From an uncultured Caulobacteraceae bacterium (GTDB lineage Bacteria; Pseudomonadota; Alphaproteobacteria; Caulobacterales; Caulobacteraceae), in assembly GCA_964451265.1 (NCBI GenBank), contig CAYVHP010000077.1:3237-67236 (forward strand): DNA of 64,000 nt. The letters run 5' to 3'. A model generated the notes under the pieces. The model was not told the origin of the DNA. It was given only the letters and a program-made list of their open reading frames with translations, and ran no database searches. This document shows positions 5,077 to 57,835 of this stretch, piece by piece. Numbering within the stretch: position 1 is the first letter of the stretch; every line of letters begins with the position of its first letter. Made by a program: the position numbers and the translations under genes.

Positions 5077-5210
5077 AATCGCCTCACACACGCCGCCCGA
5101 CTTGAAAATCAATACGCGCGAAGCCGGTGCTTGGATCAGCGCGGCGGCGAACCTGATCGGAACAAGGCGTGCTAATCTGTATGGAGACGCGATGGGAGAA
5201 GACCGCCGCA

Positions 5211-34827: not shown

Positions 34828-35094
34828 ATGGGCATGGACCACCAGTTCGGACAGCCCGGCCTGATCAATTGGCAAAACCGCAAACTGCGGCGGCCGACAG
34901 GCAAGTTCAGCCTCTGGACCACCTTCATCGTTTTGTGCGCCGTCGGCGGCCTGACGGCTCTGGGGTGCCAGATGGCGGGCTGGGTCCATTGGACGGGCCT
35001 GCTTTCGGTCCTCCCGGCGGGCCTGCTGCTGCTGGCCATCAATGCCCAACTGATCGCCGGGGTCCGCGCGGCCTTGGCCTGGCTGGCAGGCTAG
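34828..35094 (+). CDS. small membrane protein, 88 aa
   Basis: AGGAGA lies about 11 nt upstream of the ATG at 34828. Two hydrophobic helices. First of three abutting ORFs. Confidence 0.5.
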   Translation: MGMDHQFGQPGLINWQNRKLRRPTGKFSLWTTFIVLCAVGGLTALGCQMAGWVHWTGLLSVLPAGLLLLAINAQLIAGVRAALAWLAG

Positions 35095-35095
35095 G

Positions 35096-35362
35096 TTGGC
35101 CGCTCTGTTCGACGGCGCCCGAGACCAAGCCCTGCGCGGCCTGCGCGCTGTGGTGGGCCAGGCCCTGTCCTATCGTGTCCGGTATCAGGAAATTCGCCGC
35201 GAGGCCTTCGCCCTTGGCGGTCGGCACATGGGCCAGGTGCTGGTCGGCGCGCGCCTGGAATCGGAGGCGCCATCCTTGTCGTTCCGCCGTGCGGTGTTGC
35301 TGAAGGCGGTGATCCGCAGCGAGTCGGCCAAGGCGAAGGTCCCCGGCGGCGGCCGTCGATGA
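35096..35362 (+). CDS. hypothetical protein, 88 aa
   Basis: A TTG lies 1 nt after the previous stop. Hand inspection shows a strong G/C-ending codon bias. No homology recognised. Confidence 0.35.
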   Translation: MAALFDGARDQALRGLRAVVGQALSYRVRYQEIRREAFALGGRHMGQVLVGARLESEAPSLSFRRAVLLKAVIRSESAKAKVPGGGRR

Positions 35363-35586
35363 CTCTTTCACCCGCGGAGCGGCGAGCCCTGCACAATCTG
35401 GCCGCCAAACAGGCGGGCGAGGATGTGGCGTGGATCAACATCGCCGACGCCCGCGCCTTGACTGAGCTGGGCCTTGCCCGGCGCACGCGTGAGGGGTGGG
35501 AAATCACGACGGAAGGCTTGGCCGTGGTCAAGAGCACGCCCGCCCCGGACACCCCCGAAGCCAGCGTCACGCCGCTGCGGCCTTAA
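35359..35586 (+). CDS. hypothetical small protein, 75 aa
   Basis: The ATG overlaps the previous stop (ATGA). A possible winged-helix-like core (AWINIADARALTELGLARRTREGWEITTEGL). Confidence 0.5.
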   Translation: MTLSPAERRALHNLAAKQAGEDVAWINIADARALTELGLARRTREGWEITTEGLAVVKSTPAPDTPEASVTPLRP

Positions 35587-35597
35587 ACCAAATTGGA

Positions 35598-35720
35598 TTG
35601 AACAAGTTGAACCACGAAGAGCACGAAGATCACCAAGAGCTTGGTGTTCCTTCGTGTCCTTCGTGAGCTTGGTGGTTCAATAATCTTGCCCCCGGCTTGC
35701 GCCGGGAGGCGGTGATGAAC
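35598..35720. repeat. composite palindromic intergenic repeat, copy A
   Basis: Left arm TTGAACCAC-GAAGAGCAC-GAAGATCAC-CAAGAG. Right arm AGCTTGGTG-T-TCCTTCGTG-TCCTTCGTG-AGCTTGGTG-GTTCAATAAT. This is followed by CTTGCC and the small hairpin CCCGGC-TTGC-GCCGGG (35691-35706). Near-identical to copy C. Confidence 0.75.
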
Positions 35721-35727
35721 GCGCGAC

Positions 35728-35964
35728 CTAGTCCATATCCGGGTCGAGCAGCTTGTCTGCGTCGATGATGAAGTAGCGGGCGTGGGCGTTGTCGACGGTG
35801 GCCTGGGCGCGGGCTTTCCAGGCCTTGTAGGCCTCATCGTAATTGCGGAAGGCGCCGACAAATTCGACGGTGGAGGGATCGCGAAAATGCGGATGACCTT
35901 CCAGCGACTTGAGTTCCCCGCCCAGCACGATGTGCAGATGATGTTTGGCGTCTGGGTCGGTCAT
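35728..35964 (-). CDS. DUF4170 domain protein
   Basis: ATG at 35964 (MTDPDAKHHLHIVLGGELKSLEG...). Pattern recalled for DUF4170. Confidence 0.75.
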   Translation of the reverse strand: MTDPDAKHHLHIVLGGELKSLEGHPHFRDPSTVEFVGAFRNYDEAYKAWKARAQATVDNAHARYFIIDADKLLDPDMD

Positions 35965-36095
35965 GGACTGGCGGCTCCTGGAGCGACTCAAAAAGCGGGT
36001 CGCGCGGCTTTGGGGCTCGATAAAGGCGTGGTTTAGCAAAATCAATCAGCCCTGCACCGCAATCGGCCCCTTCGAGCCTTGAGTGCGCCGATTGG

Positions 36096-37427
36096 TCACC
36101 GCCCCGCTATGGCCATGTCCTCGACCAACAAGGACGGGGCATTGTTCGCGCCCCTGATTTCCAGGTCCGAACCGGCGATCACCCGCGCGTAGATGTCGAT
36201 CAGGTTGCCGGCCACCGTGATCTCATTGACCGGATAGGCGACCTGTCCGTTCTCGAACCAAAAGCCCGACACGCCGGTGGACCAGTCCCCGGTGTTGCCG
36301 TTCAGCGACGGGCCGAACATGGAGGTGACCAGCAGCCCTTGTTTGACCCCCGCCATCAGACCCGCGAGGTCCTCGCTTCCCGGCTTGACGGTGATGTTGT
36401 TCACGCCCACGCCGGGCGGACCCGCCAGGCCGCGCGAGGCGTGGCCGGTGGTTTGCAATCCCAGTTGCCGGGCCGAGGCGCTGTTGAGCAGCCAGGTTGT
36501 CAATACGCCCTTGTCGATCAGGGTGGTCGCCCTGTTAGCCACGCCCTCATCGTCAAAGGGGCTGGACCCCAGGCCGCGCACCCGGTGGGGTTCGTCGATG
36601 ATGTCTATGCCCGGCGAAAACACCGCCTCGCCCAGCTTGGTTTTCAAGAAGGAGGCGCCGCGGGCGATGGAGGGGCCTGAAATGGCGCCCAGCATCGGCG
36701 AGATCAGCGACATGGCGATGCGGTTCTCGAAGATCACCGCGGCGGTCTGGCTGTCGATCTTGCGCGCGCCCAGGCGGCCCACCGCGCGGCGGCCGGCCTC
36801 CTCGCCGATGGCTTCCGGCGCAGGCAGGTCCGATTGCCAGCGGGTGGAACGGCCGTCGCCGCCGCGTTCCATGCCGCTGTCATCCCCGGCGATGGCAGAG
36901 GCGTAGAGCGAAAAGCTCGAGGTCTTGTGCTCGCCAACAAAGCCGCCGCTGGTGACCATCAGGTAGCGTCCCGACGACCACGAGCCTGAACCGCCGTCCG
37001 AGTTGGTCACGCCAGGCACGGCGCGGGCAGCGTTCTCGGCGGTCAGGGCGCGGGCCTCGAGGTCCTCGGGCGAGGGCTCGGCGGTGTCGAACAGCTGAAG
37101 GTCAGGAAAGGGGCCCTTGGCCAGGCGGTCCTGGGGGGCCAGACCCGCGTAGGGGTCTTCGGGCGCCAGGCGGGCCATGTTGAGCACGCGCTCCACCAGT
37201 TTGGCGCGTCCGGAGGCGGAGACGTCCGAGCCCGACACGCTGGCCTGTTTTTGGCCAATGAACACCCGGATGCCGAGATCGCGCGCTTCCTCGCGCTCAA
37301 CCTCCTCCAGGTCTCCCAGTCGCACATTCACGGAGAGGGATTGACGCTCGGCCGAAACGGCCTCGGCGGCGTCGGCGCCCGCTTTCAGAGCCGCGCCGAC
37401 CAGATCATGCAACAGGTTTTTATCCAT
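36096..37427 (-). CDS. pmbA: metalloprotease PmbA (TldE)
   Basis: ATG at 37427 (MDKNLLHDLVGAALKAGADAAEA). TldD/PmbA family throughout. The upstream 125 codons of the track ORF look non-coding. Confidence 0.9.
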   Translation of the reverse strand: MDKNLLHDLVGAALKAGADAAEAVSAERQSLSVNVRLGDLEEVEREEARDLGIRVFIGQKQASVSGSDVSASGRAKLVERVLNMARLAPEDPYAGLAPQDRLAKGPFPDLQLFDTAEPSPEDLEARALTAENAARAVPGVTNSDGGSGSWSSGRYLMVTSGGFVGEHKTSSFSLYASAIAGDDSGMERGGDGRSTRWQSDLPAPEAIGEEAGRRAVGRLGARKIDSQTAAVIFENRIAMSLISPMLGAISGPSIARGASFLKTKLGEAVFSPGIDIIDEPHRVRGLGSSPFDDEGVANRATTLIDKGVLTTWLLNSASARQLGLQTTGHASRGLAGPPGVGVNNITVKPGSEDLAGLMAGVKQGLLVTSMFGPSLNGNTGDWSTGVSGFWFENGQVAYPVNEITVAGNLIDIYARVIAGSDLEIRGANNAPSLLVEDMAIAGR

Positions 37428-37568
37428 GCCGCCATATGGGGCAGGGCGGGGCCGCGCCGCAAGGGGGGAGCTGGCAGGGCAGTTCGACGGCGCAATATGT
37501 TCTCTTTGTGTTCTGGACTGACCCTGACTCGGGCGCCAAACTTGCGGCCGCACATGTGGAGCCAGAGG

Positions 37569-38510
37569 ATGACCGACGCCGCCTACGATCCGTCCGGCCA
37601 TTTCGCGACCATGGGCCCTAATTCCCTTAGAGACGATCCCCCTTGGAGCGCGCGGCCGCTGAAGGTCCCAGCATTGTGGGCGTTCGCTAAGGGAGCGCAG
37701 GGCGGCTTTCGACCCACCGGCGATCCCTTGAAGGACAGCATCACCCAGGCGCTGCGATACCATATCGGCTTGGACGACGCGCGGAGCGCCGGCGACCGTC
37801 AACGGTCTATGATGCTTAGCCTGGGGCTGGCGTCGATAGCACCGGACGGAGGCCTGCTGGCGCCGATTTCGGACGACAACGATGCGCGATCACATTTGTC
37901 CGATGGCCCGCCGCGAGGCGGCCAACTGTACAAAGTCGTTGGCTCCAAGCCGGCGAGGGATCTCCACAAATCGGGGGATGACACCGGATACTATCAGCTA
38001 GGCGAAGAATGGCTTACCGGACAAGGACCCCGCGTCCATAACTTCGGCCCCAACGATCCCGCCACTCAGATTCTCATGCAGCACAAGCATATTCAGGACG
38101 TGCGAGCGAAGATTGCGGCGTCACCGCCAAAAATTGGAAATTGGGCTCCCGACAACTATAGCCTGAGCGGCATTAAAGGCATTCCCGACTTTATCGGTGA
38201 CTACTCTGCAATTGCGGATAATGGGGCTACTGGAAACTTAGCGGCGGCTTTTTTGGGCTCATATACGCTGCGACATAGAGTTACGAATGTTAGCCCCGAC
38301 GGGGTGGCTACGGTGCAATTTCATGTTGGGAATGTCTCCGATCTACGCTCAGCGACCCACCCTCCTGTATTGGGCTATCTGCCCGGTTGGGACCAGACTG
38401 TCGGAGCAGCGATCAACGCACCATTCCAGAAGGGTCCGTTTTCGCCCACGGGGCAGAATTTCGATTGGACTGAGCAGGTCCAGTTGAACAGGACAAAGGC
38501 GTCTCATTGA
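37569..38510 (+). CDS. hypothetical protein, 313 aa, compositionally atypical
   Basis: GGAG lies 7 nt upstream of the ATG at 37569. No Cys, no signal peptide, no TM segment. Many A/T-ending and locally rare codons. No domain recognised. Confidence 0.6.
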   Translation: MTDAAYDPSGHFATMGPNSLRDDPPWSARPLKVPALWAFAKGAQGGFRPTGDPLKDSITQALRYHIGLDDARSAGDRQRSMMLSLGLASIAPDGGLLAPISDDNDARSHLSDGPPRGGQLYKVVGSKPARDLHKSGDDTGYYQLGEEWLTGQGPRVHNFGPNDPATQILMQHKHIQDVRAKIAASPPKIGNWAPDNYSLSGIKGIPDFIGDYSAIADNGATGNLAAAFLGSYTLRHRVTNVSPDGVATVQFHVGNVSDLRSATHPPVLGYLPGWDQTVGAAINAPFQKGPFSPTGQNFDWTEQVQLNRTKASH

Positions 38511-38971
38511 TGAGGACTCTCCTTCTCATAGCCTGCGCTTCGTTGCTGGGGGGATGCCGCCTGAGCGCTGGCCCGTCGCCGTCTAAGTCCGATCTCGTCG
38601 GGGAATGGGATAGTTCAGACGGCGCGAAGCTCGTCATCGACTCGGATGGTTCGGCGTCGATTTCCAAAGCCTCGTTACGGCGCCTAATGTTCGATGACCA
38701 ACCTTCGGTCTCCTACAGTGGCAAGGGGACTTGGGGCCTGACTGTTCCGCCGGGCGAGCCGTCATGGCCCACCATGAAGCCTTTCTGGGCGGTGGACATA
38801 TCGTTTTCAACTCCGACCCAAGGTGCTCCGGGCGGCTTCGGCGCGGAGGCCAATTTCACCCGCATGATGTGCCGTGCAACCTGCTTGTTTTTCTTCGTGG
38901 GCGATCCGGACGAGAACGAGCGGTATGAGTTCTTCAAGGCTTCCCAAGTTGCTGGGCCAATTGGGCGTTAG
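38510..38971 (+). CDS. lipoprotein, 153 aa
   Basis: The ATG at 38510 overlaps the upstream stop (TGATG). Lipobox [12 protein letters not shown]. Atypical codon usage. The 3' end overlaps the ubiD 3' end by 38 nt. Confidence 0.65.
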
Positions 38972-40499
38972 GCTTCCAGATCGGCTTGCCATCCCCCGGC
39001 AGGCCCAGGCTCGCCCACATGTCGCTGACCCGGGCGACCACCTCCGCGTCCATAGCGATCTGCTCACCCCATTCCCTGTGCGTTTCCGGGGGCCATTTGT
39101 TGGTGGCGTCCAGGCCGATCTTGGAGCCAAGGCCGGATTGCGGCGAGGCGAAGTCCAGATAATCGATCGGGGTGTTCTCGATCACGGTGATGTCGCGGGC
39201 GGGGTCCATGCGAGTGGAGACGGCCCACATGACTTCTTTCCAGTCGCGCGCGTCGATGTCCTCGTCCACCACGATGACCCACTTGGTGTACATGAACTGG
39301 CGCAGATAGGACCACACGCCCAGCATCACCCGCTTGGCGTGGCCGGGGTAGGCCTTCTTCATCGACACCACGGCGATACGGTAGCTGCAGCCCTCCGGCG
39401 GCAGCCAGAAGTCGACGATCTCGGGGAACTGCTGTTGCAGCAGCGGGATGAACACCTCATTGAGCGCTTCGCCCAGGATCGAGGGCTCGTCGGGCGGACG
39501 GCCGGTGAAGGTGGTCAGGTAGATCGGATCGCGCCGCATGGTGATGGCGGTGATCTCGAACACGGGGAAGCGTTCGACCGAATTATAGTAGCCCGTGTGG
39601 TCGCCGTAGGGGCCCTCGTCGGCGTAGTCGTCCAGGTGGACGAGGCCCTCCAGGACGATCTCGGCCTGGGCGGGCACCAGCAGGGGCTGGGTCTTGGCGC
39701 GGACCAGCTCGACCTTGGCCCCGCGCAACAGCCCCGCGAATTGATATTCCGACAATGTGTCCGGCACGGGCGTGACCGCCGCCAGGATGGTCCCGGGATC
39801 GGCGCCGAGCACCGCACAGGCGGGCAGGGGCTCGCGCTTGCCTGCCGCCTTCCAGCGCCGATGATGCTGGGCCCCGCCGCGGTGGGCCAGCCAGCGCATG
39901 ACGGTCTTGTTGGGCCCAAGCACCTGCATGCGGTAGATGCCGAGGTTGTAGTCGTCCTGCGCGCTGTCGCCCGGCCCTTTGGTCACGACGAGGGGCCAGG
40001 TGATCAGAGGCGCAGGCTCGCCCGGCCAGCAGGTCTGGATCGGCAGTTTGTTCAGGTCGATGTCTTGGCCGGTGAGCACCACCTCCTGCACCGGGGCGGA
40101 CTTCACTGTCTTGGGCCGCATGGACATGACGGTCTTGGCCAGGGGCAGCAGCTCAAGCGCGTCGCCCAGGCCGCGCGGCGGGGCGGGCTGACGCAGGAAG
40201 GCCAGCAGCTCGCCCACTTCGCGCAGGTCCTTGGCGGTGGTGCGCGGCTTGTCGGCCAGGGTGACGCCCATGGCGACCCGCGCCACCGTGCCGAACAGAT
40301 TGGCCAGGCATGGGATGGACGAGGGCTGACCATCGGCGCGGATCGGGTTCTCGAACAGAACGGCGGGGCCGCCCGTGGCTAGTAGACGCGTCTGGATTTC
40401 CGTCATCTCCAGCACAGTGGAGACGGGCGCATTCACCCGCACCAGCTCGCCGGCCGCTTCCAGCATCGCCATGAAGTCGCGCAAAGATCGGTAGGCCAT
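38934..40499 (-). CDS. ubiD: 4-hydroxy-3-polyprenylbenzoate decarboxylase
   Basis: 521 aa. UbiD pattern from [22 protein letters not shown] through [10 protein letters not shown]. Confidence 0.9.
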
Positions 40500-40603
40500 G
40501 TCGCCCCTCGCTTCCCTCCGGCGTACCTACGACGTTCGCGCCCGGATCGCCACGGCCAAGCGCGGGCTCGCCGGATGCCTCGGCGATCAGTATAGGACGT
40601 GCC

Positions 40604-41485
40604 GTGACCACGCACGCCCCAACCCTTGCCGCCCCGGTCCTGGTGCTGGGCGCCACCAGCCTGATCGGCCGGTTCATGCTCCCTTTGCTGGAGGGGCTGG
40701 GCGTGCAGACATTCGCCCTGAGCCGAAAGGCGCCGGTCGCGCCGGCCGGGGCGGTTCACTGGGTGCAGGGATCGCTGGACGACCCGCAACTGGAGGCGAG
40801 GCTGCCTGAGGCCGCTACGGTGTTCAGCCTCTCGCCCATCTGGATTTTGCCTGCCGCCCTGCCGGCGCTCAAGGCCAGGGGCATGGTGCGGCTGGTGGCC
40901 TTTTCATCCACCAGCCTGTTCACCAAGGCCGAGTCGGACGATGAGGGCGAGCGCCGCACGGCCCGGAAATTGGCCGACGGCGAGGCGGCAATCATCGCCT
41001 TCTGCCAGGCGCATGGCGTGGCCTGGACTATTCTGCGGCCCACCATGATCTATGCCGAGGGGCAGGATCAGAATGTCTCGCGGTTGGCCCGTTTGATTGG
41101 GCGGTTTGGCTTTCTGCCCCTGGCGGGTCAGGGCGAGGGGCTGCGCCAGCCGGTGCACGCCCAGGATCTGGCGGCGGGGGCTTTAGAGGCGGCGGTCCGG
41201 CCGGCGGCGCGGGACAAGGCCTACGACCTGTCCGGCGGAGAGACTCTGACGTACCGTCAGATGGCGGAGCGAATCTTTCAGGCTCTGGGCCGGCCGGTGC
41301 GTATCGTCTCGCCGCCCCTATGGCTGTGGCGGCTGGGCTTCGCACTTGCGAGATCATTTCTGCCGGGCGCCACAGCGCAAATGGGGCGCCGAATGAACGT
41401 GGACCTCGTGTTCAAGTCCACTGAGGCTGAGAATGACTTAGAATGGCGACCACGGCCATTTCAGCCAAATTTTTCAAGGTCTTGA
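40604..41485 (+). CDS. NAD(P)-binding (atypical SDR/epimerase-like) protein
   Basis: GTG at 40604 with AGGA upstream. Rossmann motif VLVLGATSLIGRF. Confidence 0.75.
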   Translation: MTTHAPTLAAPVLVLGATSLIGRFMLPLLEGLGVQTFALSRKAPVAPAGAVHWVQGSLDDPQLEARLPEAATVFSLSPIWILPAALPALKARGMVRLVAFSSTSLFTKAESDDEGERRTARKLADGEAAIIAFCQAHGVAWTILRPTMIYAEGQDQNVSRLARLIGRFGFLPLAGQGEGLRQPVHAQDLAAGALEAAVRPAARDKAYDLSGGETLTYRQMAERIFQALGRPVRIVSPPLWLWRLGFALARSFLPGATAQMGRRMNVDLVFKSTEAENDLEWRPRPFQPNFSRS

Positions 41486-41746
41486 AGCTTGACGCACCTT
41501 CCAGCTCAAACGCTATTCTTAGGTGGCTGAAGGATCAGTCATCGGAGTTTTTGAAATAAAGTATTCATGGAACCGTCAAGGACAGTTCATTTGAAATTCT
41601 CGCCCCGCCGCATGATTGAGGCCCCGTGGGGTGCGAAACAGACTCGAAGCGTCGGGCTTCGATCTGTTCGCATGTGCGCCTAGCCGCCGGACGGCGTGCT
41701 GAGCCTGATCCGTGGCCGGACCCCGCTGTCAAAAGAGGGGAATACC

Positions 41747-44194
41747 ATGACGTTCGCAAAATCAACCTACACGCGACTATTTGCGGGCGCAAGCTTCGCC
41801 GTGATGATGGCGGCTGCGGGATACGCCTCGGCTCAGCCCGCCGATAAAACGGCCGGCACGGAAGTCAACGCGATTATCATTACCGCGCCCAAAGGGCAGG
41901 CCGCAGATGTGGCGCCGGTGAAGTCTTCGCTGATGGCGACCGAACCCCAGGCGCTCATCAGCCGCAAGGAAATCGAGGAAGTGGCGCCTCGTATCGGCGA
42001 TTACACCACCACCGCGACCCTCGCCCCGTCCATGTCGTCCACCCCAAACCCCAACGGCTCGGGCTCGACTGACGGCGCTAAGCTGACCCTGCGCGGCTTT
42101 AAGGACGGGACGTTCAATGTCACCTACGACGGCATCGCTTGGGGCGACGCTAACGGACCGACGCACCACGCCAATTCCTTCTTCCCTTCATCCGCAATCG
42201 GCGCCGTGATCATTGATCGCGGGCCGGGCGGGGCGACGGAATTGGGGCAGGCGAACTTCGGCGGTCAGGTCAATCTGTTCTCTCTGCCGTTCGAAGATAA
42301 GCTCGGCCTGCGCCAAACCCTGACGACGGCGAGCTATGGGACTTGGCTGAGCGCCACCACAGTGACGACCGGGCCTCTCAAGCAGCTGCACGACCTCAAT
42401 CTGGTCGTCAATTATATGTCCTACGCCACCAACGGATACCTGACGAACAGCCCCAGCAACGGCCAGAATATCTTCATCAAGGCGACGGCGCCGATCACCA
42501 GCACCCTGGGTTTCACGGTGCTCTACACCTGGAATAAGGACTTTTATAATCAGGGCGACAGCAACTCGACCGCGAGCGTCGCTCAGACGTCCGTTTACGG
42601 AAAGCGCTTCGCGCTCAGCAATGATCCGAGCCTGCAGACCTATAAGGGCTACAACTATACCAACAAGACGACCGATTTTTCCTATTTCAAGTTAGACAAT
42701 GATTTCGGCCATGGGCTGAAGGCGGCTAACACCACCTACACCTACGCCTACGTCAACAACACCTACGCGGCCAACGACGCGACGGCGGACAACTCGCTGA
42801 CTTTGGTGACAGGGGACGGCGGCGCGGCTTTGAAAAAAGCCAACCTGGTGACGATCTCCCCGCCGGCCGCTTATCCCGCCGCGGGCAGCGCCTATCCGTC
42901 ATCGGCGCAGGTTGCCGGCCTTCCCGGCTATCTGAAGCGGAACCAGTACCGGGTGATCGGCGACGTTCTGAGGTTTGATCAGGAGTTTTCCGTCGGCACG
43001 GCGACGCTCGGCGGCATGTATGAGTACACCAACACGGAGCGCAGCAAGACCGACATCGATATGCTGACCAACAGGTTGGACTATCGCGAGACGTCCACCA
43101 AGAACCAGCCGGTCGGCACGTCCTGCGCCGCCCAAGGGTACGGCGCGCAGTCCAACGGATCATGCCAGGTTCCGCTGTATTACAACAATTTGGAATATTC
43201 AGGCTGGCATCAGTATCAGATCTTCGCCCAGTTCGAGTGGCGTCCGATGGAGGCCCTTCGCATCACCCCCGGCGTCAAATATGTGAACTTCAATCTGTTC
43301 GTGCACGCGCCGGACGACGCGAAGATTCTGCAGCCGGTGTTCCTGTCGCCGACCTTCACCAAGACCCTGCCGTTCCTGACGGCCAACTATCACATCGCCA
43401 ACAACTGGGCGGTCTATGCGCAGTATGCACAGGGGTTCCTGGTGCCGGACGTCAGCGTGTTCAATGTGGCCAACCCGGGCAATAATTCGCTGATCCCGCA
43501 GGAATCGACCAACTACCAGTTCGGCATGGTCTACAGCGCCGGGAAGCTCAGCGTCGATGCGGACGTCTACTACATCGACTTCAAGCACAAGATCCAAAGC
43601 CAGACGATCTCCGATCCGACGAGCCCGCTCAATGGGCAGACCATCTCGACCAACAACGGCAACGCCGTGTTCTCGGGCTTCGAAGTTCAGGGCACCTATG
43701 TTCTGCCTTACGGCTTCAGCGCGTTCGCCAACTATGGCCGCATCAACGCCGTGGCCAAGGACGACAAGGTCCTGCCGCTGAACAATGGCCAGCAAATCCC
43801 CGGCGCGCCGCGCTGGACCGCTGCGGCGGGGCTGCGTTCGGAGTGGCATGATGTCGGGGTTCCCGCCGGCCGCCTGGTTTTGAACGTGACCGGCAAATGG
43901 ACTGGCCCCTACACGGTCAACCCCGCGACCGCCACGCTCGGACCGGGCGGCACGATCGACGGCTACGCCGACTTCAACTTCAGCGGAACCTACAGCTGGA
44001 AGAACTATAGCCTTCAAGGACAGGTGCTCAACCTGGCCAACAGCACCGGCATCACCGGCGTGTCCGGCAAGACCTATAACCCCGGCACGACCATCCTGGC
44101 CCGCACGCCGACCGTGGCGGGCAAGGCGAACCTGAACCAGTTCGTCTATGACACCGGCACGTCCTATCAAGTCACCCTGAAGGTGGCGTTCTAA
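41747..44194 (+). CDS. TonB-dependent receptor
   Basis: ATG at 41747 with GAGGGGA upstream. Signal peptide ends YASA-Q. Plug domain (LTLRGF, IDRGPGG), a long beta-barrel and a C-terminal aromatic residue (VAF). Confidence 0.9.
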   Translation: MTFAKSTYTRLFAGASFAVMMAAAGYASAQPADKTAGTEVNAIIITAPKGQAADVAPVKSSLMATEPQALISRKEIEEVAPRIGDYTTTATLAPSMSSTPNPNGSGSTDGAKLTLRGFKDGTFNVTYDGIAWGDANGPTHHANSFFPSSAIGAVIIDRGPGGATELGQANFGGQVNLFSLPFEDKLGLRQTLTTASYGTWLSATTVTTGPLKQLHDLNLVVNYMSYATNGYLTNSPSNGQNIFIKATAPITSTLGFTVLYTWNKDFYNQGDSNSTASVAQTSVYGKRFALSNDPSLQTYKGYNYTNKTTDFSYFKLDNDFGHGLKAANTTYTYAYVNNTYAANDATADNSLTLVTGDGGAALKKANLVTISPPAAYPAAGSAYPSSAQVAGLPGYLKRNQYRVIGDVLRFDQEFSVGTATLGGMYEYTNTERSKTDIDMLTNRLDYRETSTKNQPVGTSCAAQGYGAQSNGSCQVPLYYNNLEYSGWHQYQIFAQFEWRPMEALRITPGVKYVNFNLFVHAPDDAKILQPVFLSPTFTKTLPFLTANYHIANNWAVYAQYAQGFLVPDVSVFNVANPGNNSLIPQESTNYQFGMVYSAGKLSVDADVYYIDFKHKIQSQTISDPTSPLNGQTISTNNGNAVFSGFEVQGTYVLPYGFSAFANYGRINAVAKDDKVLPLNNGQQIPGAPRWTAAAGLRSEWHDVGVPAGRLVLNVTGKWTGPYTVNPATATLGPGGTIDGYADFNFSGTYSWKNYSLQGQVLNLANSTGITGVSGKTYNPGTTILARTPTVAGKANLNQFVYDTGTSYQVTLKVAF

Positions 44195-44727: not shown

Positions 44728-44816
44728 GATCGCCCCTTTATGTTCTTTTTTTGTTCCTATCGCGTCAACCGGGGATTGTCCAGGCCCGGTGAAGGCCGCG
44801 GGATCGTCGATGGCCG

Positions 44817-46210: not shown

Positions 46211-46946
46211 CTATTTCCAGTCTAGACCCTGGACGTCGAAATGCATTTGATGCCGACCTTCCTGAAAGAATTCGGCCTCAACAATTAGTTTTTTCGCTCT
46301 CCTGAGTTCGCCAATGAACTTTGATTCGGAGTTAATGAAGAGCACGCCCGTTGTACCGTCTGACGGCTCCGAACAACCGAAGTGTTCAATTGGCTTGTCG
46401 TCAAATTTTACGGAAACAGTGGTGTGGTTGTAGCTATCACATAAAAACTGACCGCTTAACTTTTAACAAGACGTTAGTTCCGCTGTGATCTTTTCGTAAC
46501 TCAAGAGTTGTCGTGCCGCCATGATATGGGAAACCAAAGCTTTGCTCGTCTTGACTATCGAGTATGGCGAATTTTGATGAAGTCCCTCGCATTTCATCTT
46601 TTGTCTCGGAATAGGTCCAGCCGCCACTGTCTGCTACCGCCGCGCCAGACGCTGCAGCTCCCGTACCCGAATTTGTACTCTCAGCGCCGGCCTGTTGCGT
46701 AGTTTGGGTTGAACTGACTTTGGTGGTGCCGTTTGCCTGAGGCGTCGTGTGTGTTGAGTGCCCCCCCAAATAAACCAGCAAGAAGAGTCCAGCCCAAGCT
46801 CCGGAAATTGCTCGGGCGCGCGTGCTGTAGCCCTTGCGGAGCGTGAACCACCAGAAAATTAATGGGATCAGGAAGATTCCAATCCCAAGGATCAGAGAGA
46901 CGCCGCGCTTCTTAGGCACCGCCGGTTCGTTGTCCGTTACCGTCAT
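46211..46946 (-). pseudogene. membrane-anchored protein gene interrupted by a frameshift
   Basis: Track ORF 46437..46946 (two TM segments, Thr/Ser/Ala-rich linker, globular start) stops at 46437-46439. Hand translation of an adjacent frame continues without a start codon: (SGQ)FLCDSYNHTTVSVKFDDKPIEHFGCSEPSDGTTGVLFINSESKFIGELRRAKKLIVEAEFFQEGRHQMHFDVQGLDWK, with a stop at 46211-46213. Confidence 0.55.
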
Positions 46947-47107: not shown

Positions 47108-47506
47108 TCAGGCCAACAATACCGCCGACCCGCCCTGTTGAGCTATCAGGGAGACAGCTTTCTTGTCGAAGGAGACGAAGGTTTCGCCGCCCAGCCAGGC
47201 GCCTTCGTACGCTATGAGTCCATCAGCGAAGTCGCCGCCCGCTCTAAGTACCGCCAATCCGGCATCCACGGCGGGCCGATTGACGGCGACATTGGCGGTT
47301 TCCAGTAGGGCTTCAAGGGCGGCGCAAATGTCAGCCGGGCTCGTGTTGTAAACCCGGCGCAGCACCCAAACGAACTCGCACAGGCAAGGCAGGGAAACCG
47401 CGATAACCTCTGCCTCCTTGAGAAGCGTAGCGGCAGCCTGGGCCTGTTTTGCGTCATCTCTGACCGCGGCGCGGACAAGGATGTTGGTGTCGACTGTGAC
47501 CTTCAC
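47108..47506 (-). CDS. vapC: PIN-domain toxin VapC
   Basis: The GTG at 47506 overlaps the antitoxin stop (GTGA). VTVDTNILVRA (first acidic residue), the later EFVWVL and DGLIA motifs fit the PIN fold. Confidence 0.85.
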   Translation of the reverse strand: MKVTVDTNILVRAAVRDDAKQAQAAATLLKEAEVIAVSLPCLCEFVWVLRRVYNTSPADICAALEALLETANVAVNRPAVDAGLAVLRAGGDFADGLIAYEGAWLGGETFVSFDKKAVSLIAQQGGSAVLLA

Positions 47507-47754
47507 TCCCGCCCGGCCCAGCCGGCCGCTGCCGCCTCGTTGATTTCGTCGATTGTTGCCACTTTCGTGGTTTTGTCGGCAAGCAAGCCCAAGAAGCCAT
47601 CTATCGCGCCCGTCGGTCTGGCCGCCTTGAGCGCCACTCGGCCATCCGGCAATTTGTTCAATTCGATCTTTTCGCCCGGCCGAATTCCGAGGTGCTGCAG
47701 AACGTCCCTGCGGAATGTGACCTGGCCCCGGGCGGTGACCGTCAACGTTGTCAT
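47503..47754 (-). CDS. vapB: AbrB/MazE/SpoVT-type antitoxin VapB
   Basis: 83 aa. MTTLTVTARGQVTFRRDVLQHLGIRPGEKIEL is a SpoVT/AbrB swapped-hairpin motif. Confidence 0.85.
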   Translation of the reverse strand: MTTLTVTARGQVTFRRDVLQHLGIRPGEKIELNKLPDGRVALKAARPTGAIDGFLGLLADKTTKVATIDEINEAAAAGWAGRE

Positions 47755-56136: not shown

Positions 56137-57567
56137 CTAGAGACTCGTCCCGCCCACCGTCAGGCCTTTGATCTTCATGCTGGGCTGGCCGACGCCTACC
56201 GGGACGCCCTGGCCGGCCTTGCCGCAGACGCCGATGCCGGGGTCGAAGCAGAAGTCGTCGCCGATCATCTCAACGCGGGTCAAGGCGCTGGGCCCGTCGC
56301 CGATCAAGGTGGCGCCCTTGACCGGAGTGGTGATCTTGCCGTCCTCGATCAGGTAGGCCTCGGTGCACTGGAACACGAACTTGCCGTTGGTGATGTCCAC
56401 CTGGCCGCCGCCGAAGCTGGCGGCATAGAGGCCGCGTTTGACCGATTTGATCATCTCGTCTCGAGGCGTTTCGCCCGCAAGCATCCCGGTGTTGGTCATG
56501 CGCGGCAGGGGCATGTGAGCGTAGGATTCGCGCCGACCGTTGCCGGTGGCCTTCATGCCCATCAGCCGCGCGCTCATGCGGTCGTGCATGTAACCGACCA
56601 GGATGCCGTCCTCGATCAGAATGGTGCGTTCGGTGGGGGTGCCTTCGTCATCGATGGTGAGCGAGCCGCGGCGGCCCAGCTCTGTGCCGTCGTCAAATAC
56701 GGTCACGCCCGGCGCAGCCACCCGTTCGCCGATGCGGCCTGAGAAGGCCGAAACGCCCTTGCGGTTGAAGTCGCCTTCTAGGCCATGGCCGACCGCCTCG
56801 TGCAGCAGCACGCCGTTCCATCCGGGGCCGAGCACCACATCCATCTCGCCTGCCGGCGCGGGAACGGCGTCCAGGTTCACCAGGGCATGGCGCAGGGCTT
56901 CATCGACCTCTTGCTTCCACTTCTCGGGGGTGATCCAGGCCTCGAATCCGGCCCGGCCGCCGGAGCCCGAATTTCCCGACTCGCGTCGGCCGTCGCGCTC
57001 GACGGTGACCTGGACCCCGATGCGCACCAAGGGTCGCACGTCGCGCAGGAGCCGTCCGTCGCCGCGCAGAATTTCGATTTGCCGCCGTTCGCCCGCCAGG
57101 GACGCCATCACCTGAACCACGCGGGGATCGCGGGCGCGGGCATAGGCGTCGATTTCCTGCAGAAGCGCGACCTTGTCGGAGAAGCCGGGCGAGGCCAGGG
57201 GATCGTCCTCGCCGTACAGCTTGGCGTTGGTGTGGCGCGGACCTTCGGCGGCGACGCCGCTGTAGCCGCGCTTGGCCAGGGCGGCCGATTGGGCGGCGCG
57301 GCCTATTGCCGCCTCGGAGATCTCGCTGGCGTGGGCGTAACCGCTGCGCTCTCCGGCCACCACCCGCAGGCCGAAGCCTTCGGCGGCGTCATAGGCGGCC
57401 GACTTCAATCGACCGTCGTCAAACACAAATGATTCGCTTTCTGACCGCTCTACGAACAGTTCCCCGTCGTCCGCCCCGTCCAGGGCCTCGCCCAGCAGGT
57501 TCCCGGCGCGGACGGGATCGACGTCGCAGGCCTCAAGGATGGAAACGGCGGACGCGGGAGCGGTCAT
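56137..57567 (-). CDS. tldD: metalloprotease TldD
   Basis: ATG at 57567 (MTAPASAVSILEA...). TldD pattern including HEAVGHGLEGD. Confidence 0.9.
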   Translation of the reverse strand: MTAPASAVSILEACDVDPVRAGNLLGEALDGADDGELFVERSESESFVFDDGRLKSAAYDAAEGFGLRVVAGERSGYAHASEISEAAIGRAAQSAALAKRGYSGVAAEGPRHTNAKLYGEDDPLASPGFSDKVALLQEIDAYARARDPRVVQVMASLAGERRQIEILRGDGRLLRDVRPLVRIGVQVTVERDGRRESGNSGSGGRAGFEAWITPEKWKQEVDEALRHALVNLDAVPAPAGEMDVVLGPGWNGVLLHEAVGHGLEGDFNRKGVSAFSGRIGERVAAPGVTVFDDGTELGRRGSLTIDDEGTPTERTILIEDGILVGYMHDRMSARLMGMKATGNGRRESYAHMPLPRMTNTGMLAGETPRDEMIKSVKRGLYAASFGGGQVDITNGKFVFQCTEAYLIEDGKITTPVKGATLIGDGPSALTRVEMIGDDFCFDPGIGVCGKAGQGVPVGVGQPSMKIKGLTVGGTSL

Positions 57568-57835
57568 GGCTGAAAATCCGGTCAAATGCGGTACGAGATT
57601 GCGATCATATCTAGATAGGGCGCCGCCAACCTTTCGGAAACCGTCACTGTGGGCGGCTAGCGCCTTGGCAAGCGCAAATTGAACGCGTATGCACGCCCCC
57701 AAGCCAAAAGGGGACCAAGCTTCGGCTCAGGTGCGACATTCCGCTCCGAAGCCAGGGCTTAGCGCCTTTGACCTTTGCGTTAGTGTCAGAGGCGGACTTG
57801 CTCCGACCGACGACGACAGCCGAACTGTGGGGACT

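Follow-up and report, generated by a model that had tools for sequence, protein, structure and literature searches.

The cassette between ubiD and pmbA

The 64-kb window studied here, by which we mean the whole 64,000-nucleotide stretch of contig CAYVHP010000077.1 from an uncultured Caulobacteraceae bacterium (GCA_964451265.1), carries two overlapping plus-strand genes between pmbA (36096-37427, minus strand; Pfam PmbA_TldD domains 1-3) and ubiD (38934-40499, minus strand; Pfam UbiD_N, UbiD, and UbiD_C). Gene 1 (37569-38510) encodes a predicted polymorphic toxin of 313 residues that has, according to the open reading frame (ORF) listing and our direct reading, neither a cysteine nor a signal peptide; a Shine-Dalgarno sequence read from the DNA (GGAG, 37558-37561, plus strand) stands 7 nt before its ATG. 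Gene 2 (38510-38971) encodes a lipoprotein of 153 residues, predicted to be the cognate immunity protein, and its ATG overlaps the stop codon of gene 1 (TGATG, 38508-38512). We consider it very probable that the two genes form an envelope-acting toxin/immunity module. The coordinates, the lengths, the overlap, the lack of cysteine in gene 1, and the spacing of its GGAG had been given in an earlier reading made without database searches (the sequence-only reading), and all of them held when re-read.

Both genes are real: gene 1 because it has 35 homologous protein clusters, and gene 2 because it matches a family of ORFs that, in 86 of 90 loci, lies downstream of the toxin domain. The exact protein of gene 1 is also present in NCBI assembly GCA_035548695.1. 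A longer gene-1 ORF that begins at a TTG at 37251 was rejected as the gene start because related loci upstream of 37569 align only as diverged non-coding sequence with insertions and deletions; by contrast, ATGACCGACGCCGCCTACGAT is identical in all related loci, and the GGAGCC of the Shine-Dalgarno region is kept in every allele of the cassette.

The cassette is an insertion, as the sequence-only reading had proposed. Synteny was compared across a PmbA scan with one genome per species, which assigns the window to uncultured Caulobacteraceae-type Alphaproteobacteria and in which the best matches came from a “Pseudomonadota” metagenome-assembled genome (MAG; 96% identity, L011) and an alphaproteobacterial MAG (91%), followed by Caulobacteraceae MAGs (78-83%), Caulobacter and Phenylobacterium (about 71%), and Brevundimonas (about 65%). 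In the nearest relative, L011, ubiD and pmbA lie on the same strand with a gap of about 45 bp and no cassette; the 91% relative and an 83% relative likewise lack it (gaps of 157 and 226 bp, respectively). In an alignment of the window with L011 and L013, homology ends near 37483 and resumes at 38973, which delimits an inserted segment of about 1.49 kb (37484-38972, plus strand; left edge approximate to ±10 nt) that holds the leader, gene 1, and gene 2. The right edge lies directly after the conserved last codon of ubiD (K, 38973-38975), so that the UbiD of the window reads 12 extra C-terminal codons (38937-38972, minus strand) from the antisense strand of the insert, where they overlap the 3' end of gene 2; ubiD ends in IWK in L011, in PIWKT in L002, and in PIWR in L172. 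The original ubiD stop codon was thus replaced by the insertion in the window, and in the allele of L172 the immunity ORF overlaps the end of ubiD by 59 nt. Direct or inverted repeats around the insert do not exceed chance, and we found neither an integrase at the locus nor a tRNA between 30 and 48 kb of the window.

A related locus, L173, is nearly identical to the window in the coding regions of the cassette (7 of 1,403 positions differ; 99.5% identical) but less so outside them: in the adjacent ubiD end, 8 of 134 positions differ (94% identity), and the leader has 89% identity. The cassette is therefore younger than its flanks or has been exchanged between strains. All seven differences are nonsynonymous (M15T, R77G, S89P, S111A, and T233K in gene 1; D44N and G71S in gene 2).

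The composition of the insert is uneven. Against a baseline of 33 Pfam-supported genes of the window, in which the G+C content of third codon positions (GC3) has a mean of 0.793, a standard deviation of 0.053, and a minimum of 0.652, residues 138-313 of gene 1 stand far out (GC 0.542, GC3 0.568, z -4.3), gene 2 less so (GC 0.599, GC3 0.693, z -1.9), and residues 1-110 of gene 1 are host-like (GC 0.642, GC3 0.736, z -1.1). The foreign signature is therefore that of the C-terminal half of gene 1 and, more weakly, of gene 2, not of the whole cassette; in all three alleles of the site (see below), the killing domain and the downstream gene lie below the N-terminus and the flanks in GC and GC3. The foreign codon usage reported by the sequence-only reading thus stands for the C-terminal domain and partly for gene 2, and fails for the first 110 residues, while its remark that the neighboring genes use almost only G/C-ending codons was overstated. 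Conservation of the cassette across the family with host-like codon usage is not what we observe: it is absent from the nearest relative, and its C-terminal domain is the most deviant part.

More distant members of the family carry other small genes in the ubiD-pmbA spacer (L014, L015, L017, L019, L020, L026, L033, L039, and L040), and the junction is a general hot spot of small-gene gain. One such spacer group encodes a secreted Gly/Ala-rich protein of about 155 residues, and the other a membrane protein of about 133 residues that is MAPEG-like by eye only. Elsewhere in the window, a tldD-like second gene of the PmbA/TldD family (56137-57702, minus strand) adjoins coxBA at a distance of some 19 kb from pmbA. 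Another patch of unusual composition begins with a 169-residue ORF (46437-46946, minus strand) that has no Pfam family and a GC3 of 0.55; it adjoins a PIN-domain (VapC-like) gene (47108-47754, minus strand) with a small upstream partner ORF, the latter two being a likely toxin-antitoxin pair. An Rfam scan of 35000-41800 gave no match.

The C-terminal toxin domain and its lipoprotein partner

A search with gene 1 over 5.8 billion clustered proteins returned 35 matches. One of them, P0001, is 98% identical over the full length; 33 span only residues ~138-313, at 40-57% identity. These residues (37980-38507, plus strand) delimit a C-terminal toxin domain of an unannotated family that also occurs at the C-termini of Rhs proteins: the C-terminal matches (E-values of 1e-26 to 1e-53) are tips of Rhs/YD-repeat proteins and small stand-alone toxin genes, and in several the domain forms the end of an Rhs/YD-repeat protein (PF05593, PF25023, and PF03527), after the motif that ends the Rhs core. 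The family has 216 metagenomic relatives, many of them on long Rhs proteins with N-terminal extensions of more than 1,600 residues and RHS_repeat matches; short genes with little beyond the toxin domain, each with an immunity gene, are also common in the metagenomic set. The sequence-only reading had called the pair unrecognizable, which no longer applies, as it belongs to a sizeable, if unannotated, toxin/immunity family. It had also suggested that the neighborhoods of homologues be searched, and these show Rhs contexts for the toxin domain together with a conserved lipoprotein partner. Gene 1 itself has no YD-repeat shell or Rhs core in Pfam, the repeats being present only in its homologues.

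Two of the homologous loci deserve mention for their own arrangement. L004 (2175-19975) holds an Rhs orphan array, in which a 1,867-residue teneurin-like Rhs protein is followed by three more C-terminal fragments of the YD shell, one of them bearing the toxin domain of gene 1; unannotated genes of about 330 residues and insertion sequence elements are interleaved. L008 (9735-11358) is an actinobacterial-looking locus (thyX, dapB, dapA, RNase J, ftsK), in which the domain sits on a 303-residue protein that is preceded by an overlapping 89-residue ORF and followed by the lipoprotein; the arrangement may reflect a Gram-positive mode of delivery, for example a WXG/LXG-like one, and it has no Pfam match.

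No annotated family accounts for the domain. Pfam, NCBIfam, and PHROGs hold no family for either gene 1 or gene 2; the sole Pfam match of gene 1 at E<=1, DUF7243 (E 0.053), was dismissed as chance because it matches only one of 36 family members. A profile search of PDB sequences gave no match to the toxin domain, only Rhs-core ends that derive from the N-termini of homologues. The AlphaFold2 model is confident over most of residues ~138-310 (predicted local distance difference test score, pLDDT, 87-96) and shows an alpha/beta fold with a four-stranded sheet as its core, for which Foldseek found no match in the PDB (best E 0.4) or in BFVD (best E 0.27); the top entries, levivirus coat proteins and exosome subunits, are meaningless at these values. 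Homology to a housekeeping enzyme, one of the outcomes that would have spoken against the sequence-only reading, thus appeared in none of Pfam, NCBIfam, PHROGs, PDB sequences, and Foldseek.

The family is marked by the motifs EWLTGxGPR, DPxTxxLxxH, DYS, TGNLAxxYLGSY, NxSxxxSATHPPVLGY, and GPxSxTxQxF. Polar residues that are near-invariant across the 73 unique sequences are R155, D163, T166, H172, Y197, D211, Y212, S213, T221, N223, S231, Y232, N255, S257, S261, Y270, S292, Q296, and E302, and the near-invariant residues include no cysteine. The domain looks like an enzyme, with R155, D163, H172, D211, Y212, S231, N255, S257, S261, Q296, and E302 as candidate catalytic residues. An R-S-E triad of the ADP-ribosyltransferase type (R155/S231/E302) was considered and set aside: the spacing does not fit, and immunity on the periplasmic side would sit poorly with an NAD-dependent cytoplasmic activity.

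Gene 2 begins with a signal peptide and lipobox (38510-38557) that read LLGG-C16, with Cys16 at 38555-38557, in agreement with the sequence-only reading. With gene 2 itself as the query, direct protein searches yielded nothing beyond a 99% twin, and a word-indexed profile search with the immunity family found only 6 clusters; the family was recovered from the ORFs downstream of toxin homologues. The ORFs that directly follow homologues of the toxin domain encode lipoproteins of ~140-165 residues that align with gene 2 (with an additional tblastn match in L010) and share the lipobox cysteine and the motifs P..(D/E)hVGxW, DGTF, GxGTW, and GDPD. Hidden Markov models (HMMs) of the toxin and the lipoprotein were run on 80 of the 216 metagenomic loci, one viral locus, and the earlier loci, a sample of 90 toxin-domain ORFs (73 unique). 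An ORF of ~130-170 residues that matches the immunity HMM lies within a few dozen nucleotides downstream of 86 of these 90, and 85 of the 86 have a hydrophobic leader that ends in a cysteine; the lipoprotein partner is kept even in the actinobacterial-looking locus L008. Gene 2 is thus predicted to be the cognate immunity protein of the toxin domain. An AlphaFold2 model of the immunity protein built on seven sequences reached a pLDDT of 40 and was discarded. The conserved lipoprotein partner points to an extracytoplasmic target of the toxin. The sequence-only reading had proposed an effector/immunity, bacteriocin, or polymorphic-toxin module within an insert, and the homology to Rhs tips, the lipoprotein partner in 86 of 90 cases, and the absence of the insert from the nearest relative all speak for it.

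The N-terminal module, its alleles, and the leader

The N-terminal module of gene 1 (residues 1-~110; 37569-37898, plus strand), which we presume to serve in delivery or translocation, contains an invariant MTDAAYD at its very start (37569-37589), PxLWxF, and FxPTGDPLxDxxxQALRYxIGxDD, embedded in Gly/Pro/Ser/Asp-rich sequence that is predicted to be disordered; residues 1-137 consist to 61% of G, P, S, D, A, N, T, and Q. AlphaFold2 gives this region a pLDDT below 50 with two short helices, on an alignment that is only three to four sequences deep there. When 1.84 billion cluster representatives were searched exhaustively by phmmer with residues 1-137 as the query, residues 1-~100 were found only in P0001, P0033 (60% identity), and P0042 (46%); 14 further matches were WD40 proteins whose “AISPDGTWLAT” repeats matched residues 84-120 repeatedly, and were rejected as spurious.

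P0033 and P0042 share the site of the cassette as well as its N-terminus. P0033, which occupies the pmbA-ubiD spacer of a related genome (L002), aligns with gene 1 over residues 1-~125 alone and continues into a different C-terminal domain with no assigned family; at the DNA level, L002 and the window are highly identical through pmbA, the leader, and the first ~105 codons, and then not at all until the end of ubiD. P0033 is followed by a largely hydrophobic ORF of 130 residues, which we read by eye as multi-spanning. P0042 (280 residues), also between pmbA and ubiD (L172), shares residues 1-98 at 46% identity and ends in Pfam Phage_lysozyme (E 4.8e-9, above the curated cut-off), which aligns to residues 10-147 of T4 lysozyme; a 206-residue ORF with a signal-like N-terminus, again read by eye, follows it. 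The alleles at the pmbA/ubiD site are thus proteins of 280-336 residues with a common N-terminus, different killing domains, and a downstream ORF of their own each. One N-terminus joined to unrelated C-terminal domains, with a downstream gene that co-varies with the toxin domain, is the arrangement by which polymorphic toxins are recognized.

On this comparison, at least three alleles occupy one chromosomal site, each with its own candidate for an envelope-located immunity protein, and gene 1 is modular: a resident, host-like N-terminal module to which a C-terminal toxin was swapped in together with its immunity gene. Here we depart from the sequence-only reading, which had treated gene 1 as a single foreign unit. 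For the lysozyme allele, action outside the cytoplasm is self-evident; if the readings by eye hold, the protector would stand on the outer face of the cytoplasmic membrane in all three alleles, and the toxins would accordingly be expected to act outside the cytoplasm.

Several candidate readings of the N-terminus were rejected. Enterobacterial TonB boxes are of the DTMVV/ETLTV type, and MTDAAYD resembles neither these nor NAIIITAP, the box of the window's own TonB-dependent receptor. The prePAAR motif is AARxxDxxxH, into the register of which DAAYDPSGH does not fit, and H11 is not conserved. A reading of “AAYDPSG” as an Rhs/YD remnant has no RHS support in Pfam.

The leader contains a LexA (SOS) box motif, GTTCTCTTTGTGTTC (37499-37513, plus strand), which perfectly matches the LexA consensus of Caulobacter, GTTCN7GTTC (PMC4211646, PMC9578287), ends 55 nt before the ATG of gene 1, and is followed by a -35-like TGGAC. 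The motif lies within the inserted DNA, and five cassette-free relatives have no such box between ubiD and pmbA. In L002/L003, L172, and L173, all 8 half-site positions are kept, 55-57 nt before the ATG, although 2-4 of the 7 spacer bases vary and identity over the remainder of the leader is as low as 42-60% across the three alleles. A scan for sigma-70 promoters and terminators gave no match in the region, with a tool that is not tuned to Caulobacter promoters.

Of the 46 other toxin-domain genes whose 5' end is complete, only one has a GTTCN7GTTC box, and it is the closest relative with a complete 5' region (55% identity). It lies on a GC-rich, P22-like viral contig (L171, 1632-3020), where the toxin-lipoprotein pair stands just upstream of a P22-type portal gene and the box abuts a -35-like TTGACG; this boxed relative links the module to SOS-timed or lysis-timed release. 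Further close relatives (P0005; L005/L006/L007) are found beside P22-type portal and coat genes; in L005/L006/L007, as in L171, the pair directly precedes the portal gene and thus lies within a region of phage morphogenesis genes.

Two other GTTCN7GTTC sequences occur in the window. The second, GTTCTTTTTTTGTTC (44742-44756, plus strand), lies in the short spacer that separates two minus-strand genes, one for a UbiA prenyltransferase and one of the glyoxalase/VOC family, so that another gene there may be LexA-regulated; the third (5149-5163, minus strand) lies inside an ORF.

A proposed SOS-induced bacteriocin and its alternatives

What kind of module the cassette represents depends on how the toxin is delivered. 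We hold it to be an even call that the locus encodes an SOS-induced, lysis-released bacteriocin in the style of colicin M and pesticin: LexA would repress the gene 1-gene 2 operon and DNA damage would induce it; the toxin, which has no export signal, would be set free when the producer lyses, for instance by exploiting a prophage or another SOS-triggered lysis event; the largely disordered N-terminal module with its short conserved motifs would bring it past the outer membrane of related cells, as in colicin M and pesticin; the C-terminal domain would then harm the cell wall, its precursors, or the membrane; and the outward-facing lipoprotein would neutralize incoming toxin in carriers of the cassette. 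The 30 large ORFs of the window, all housekeeping, and the three allele loci include no genes of a type VI secretion system (T6SS) or of other protein secretion; besides the cassette, the allele loci hold only pmbA, ubiD, DUF4170, an epimerase, and a TonB-dependent receptor, and no lysis gene was found near the alleles. The sequence-only reading had for this reason placed the pair as an orphan module. Its observation stands, but the orphan frame may be wrong, as the colicin M/pesticin-like layout together with the conserved LexA box suggests a bacteriocin, which needs no dedicated export machine.

A number of points weigh against a bacteriocin. MTDAAYD is unlike a canonical TonB box, and no folded receptor-binding domain was recognized in residues 1-137, a weak point given the three- to four-sequence alignment. 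The window holds three matches to GTTCN7GTTC where 1.48 are expected, so that the match alone is not significant; the case for the LexA box comes from its conservation across alleles, not from the match count. That all seven differences from L173 are nonsynonymous is suggestive of diversifying selection or of relaxed constraint, although not significant (approximately p = 0.13 under neutrality). The immunity gene is co-directional with the toxin gene and overlaps it, whereas most cmi-like immunity genes of colicin M run in the reverse orientation (PMC5821083), although the ColM family also includes immunity genes downstream on the same strand. T6SSs deliver Rhs-type C-terminal domains and pesticin-type lysozymes in other bacteria (PMC9620997), and our negative result for T6SS genes covers 30 large ORFs of the 64-kb window and the allele loci.

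The last two points bear on an alternative that we consider unlikely, though not negligible: gene 1 could be a cargo effector of a T6SS or another contact-dependent system, its N-terminal module binding a VgrG, PAAR, Hcp, or adaptor encoded elsewhere, and be injected into the periplasm of neighboring cells. Stand-alone effector/immunity pairs distant from T6SS clusters exist; the C-terminal domain is of a kind typical of Rhs proteins, a class with many T6SS cargo members, and an envelope-located immunity protein is the rule for periplasm-acting T6SS effectors. Yet LexA boxes are typical of colicins and prophages rather than of T6SS effectors, which we count against cargo. A pesticin-type lysozyme toxin is delivered by a T6SS in Vibrio (PMC9620997); here, however, vgrG, hcp, paar, adaptor, and tss genes are found neither among the 30 large ORFs of the window nor beside the three alleles, and gene 1 matches no Pfam family above threshold, hence no PAAR or other known delivery domain. 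Moreover, a close relative of the module resides on a P22-like phage contig, and a phage cannot depend on a T6SS of its host.

It is rather improbable, in our estimate, that the pair is a non-delivered orphan, i.e. a stranded toxin remnant at a locus kept mainly for gene 2, which would protect against toxins of the same family borne by the Rhs proteins or phages of neighbors. Such a remnant would resemble the short toxin-domain genes with immunity partners that are common in metagenomes and the orphan arrays that follow full-length Rhs genes; the absence of visible delivery machinery from the window and the allele loci would be expected of it, and the seven nonsynonymous substitutions are compatible with relaxed constraint. 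A remnant would hardly keep 313 intact codons, a Shine-Dalgarno sequence of its own, a conserved leader, and a stop codon that overlaps the start of gene 2, and gene 1 shows no trace of an Rhs core in Pfam; above all, an N-terminal module whose invariant motifs are kept across three alleles with differing killing domains bears the signature of a functional delivery scaffold.

A phage-derived, SOS-timed module that serves phage/host lysis biology, e.g. as an auxiliary lysis factor or a superinfection/exclusion factor from a P22-like prophage, is very improbable: the closest toxin-lipoprotein relatives do adjoin P22-type portal genes, one allele (P0042) bears a phage-lysozyme domain, and a LexA box motif is present, but the locus has no phage genes, integrase, or att-like repeats, the toxin domain, with its lipoprotein partner, ends Rhs proteins in most loci, a setting indicative of an antibacterial toxin/immunity pair, and a protector that faces the periplasm would be of no use against a signal-less cytoplasmic toxin unless that toxin came from outside.

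For the bacteriocin reading, a close counterpart is pesticin of Yersinia pestis, a protein of 357 residues with an unfolded Gly/Pro/Ser-rich N-terminus, a functional motif in its first ~8 residues, and an exchangeable, periplasm-acting killing domain at the C-terminus; its immunity protein is likewise periplasmic, and a lysis gene is lacking (PMC3390615). The module of the window resembles pesticin and its immunity protein Pim in the small soluble toxin (280-336 residues here), the largely disordered N-terminus with an invariant extreme end, and the immunity on the periplasmic side, and the sister allele P0042 has the same T4-lysozyme-type domain. It differs from pesticin in that it has no recognizable TonB box or folded receptor-binding domain, in that the killing domain of the window is unrelated to lysozyme and has no fold match, in that immunity is provided by a lipoprotein whose co-directional gene overlaps the toxin stop codon with its start, and in its alphaproteobacterial host and chromosomal locus. 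Members of the colicin M family attack the envelope from the periplasm, are often encoded on the chromosome and at recombination-prone spots, and have no lysis gene; their release has been proposed to occur through prophage or tailocin lysis, their immunity partners are varied (periplasmic or with multiple transmembrane segments), and domain shuffling is frequent (PMC5821083). Compared with colicin M and its immunity proteins (Cmi/PmiA/BmiA), the module of the window has no ColM domain, another N-terminal module, and a LexA box of the alphaproteobacterial direct-repeat type. The window allele therefore lacks the sequence features that define the ColM and pesticin families and shares with them a periplasm-exposed immunity protein.

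With Rhs/YD-repeat toxins, gene 1 has in common the C-terminal domain and the immunity family, which there mostly follow the DPxG core end and also occur in orphan arrays; unlike them, it has no YD repeats, Rhs core, or DPxGL cleavage motif, does not lie downstream of an rhs gene, and has an unrelated N-terminal module, a start, and a leader of its own. T6SS pairs (Tae/Tai, Tge/Tgi, Tle/Tli; Vibrio TssI2/TsiI2) are similar in combining a signal-less cytoplasmic toxin with an adjacent, envelope-located immunity protein, and different in that the present module has no linkage to T6SS genes, no known delivery motif (PAAR, MIX, etc.), and an SOS box in its leader. By its sequence features, the module thus fits the definition of a polymorphic toxin system, is not an Rhs protein, and is devoid of the genetic hallmarks of T6SS cargo.

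Within the same bacterial family, the CdzC/D-CdzI system of Caulobacter crescentus is described as a contact-dependent two-protein bacteriocin made of cell-surface-associated glycine-zipper proteins that kills related cells (PMC5380434). It has no apparent relation to gene 1 in sequence or architecture. The Cdz proteins are reportedly small and exported by a type I system, and are not known to be SOS-regulated. We know of no bacteriocin of the Caulobacter family besides CdzCD, and our literature search yielded none. Nor, to our knowledge, has a LexA-boxed, chromosomal, alphaproteobacterial locus with three alleles in one housekeeping spacer been described.

None of the three components, N-terminal module, toxin domain, and immunity family, has an annotation. 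It is possible, though we hold this tentatively and on balance doubt it, that they belong to an undescribed class of alphaproteobacterial, LexA-controlled modular bacteriocins that combine a new, largely disordered import module with interchangeable, periplasm-acting warheads; the warhead of the window would then represent a new envelope-targeting fold that is shared by Rhs proteins, P22-like phages, and these bacteriocins and is always neutralized by one family of lipoproteins.

In conclusion, our analysis defines an unannotated toxin domain and a lipoprotein immunity family with at least 216 environmental relatives in Rhs proteins, phage contigs, and stand-alone genes, and the fold, which has no solved match, may hide a new mode of envelope attack. 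The three alleles at one site and the cassette-free relative provide a clean system in which to study how recombination between conserved flanks exchanges toxin/immunity pairs. Protein bacteriocins of the colicin-like, SOS-induced kind are mainly known in Gammaproteobacteria; if the bacteriocin reading is true, a Caulobacteraceae bacteriocin with a new import module would widen the colicin paradigm, and its N-terminal module would offer a natural scaffold for protein transport across the alphaproteobacterial outer membrane.

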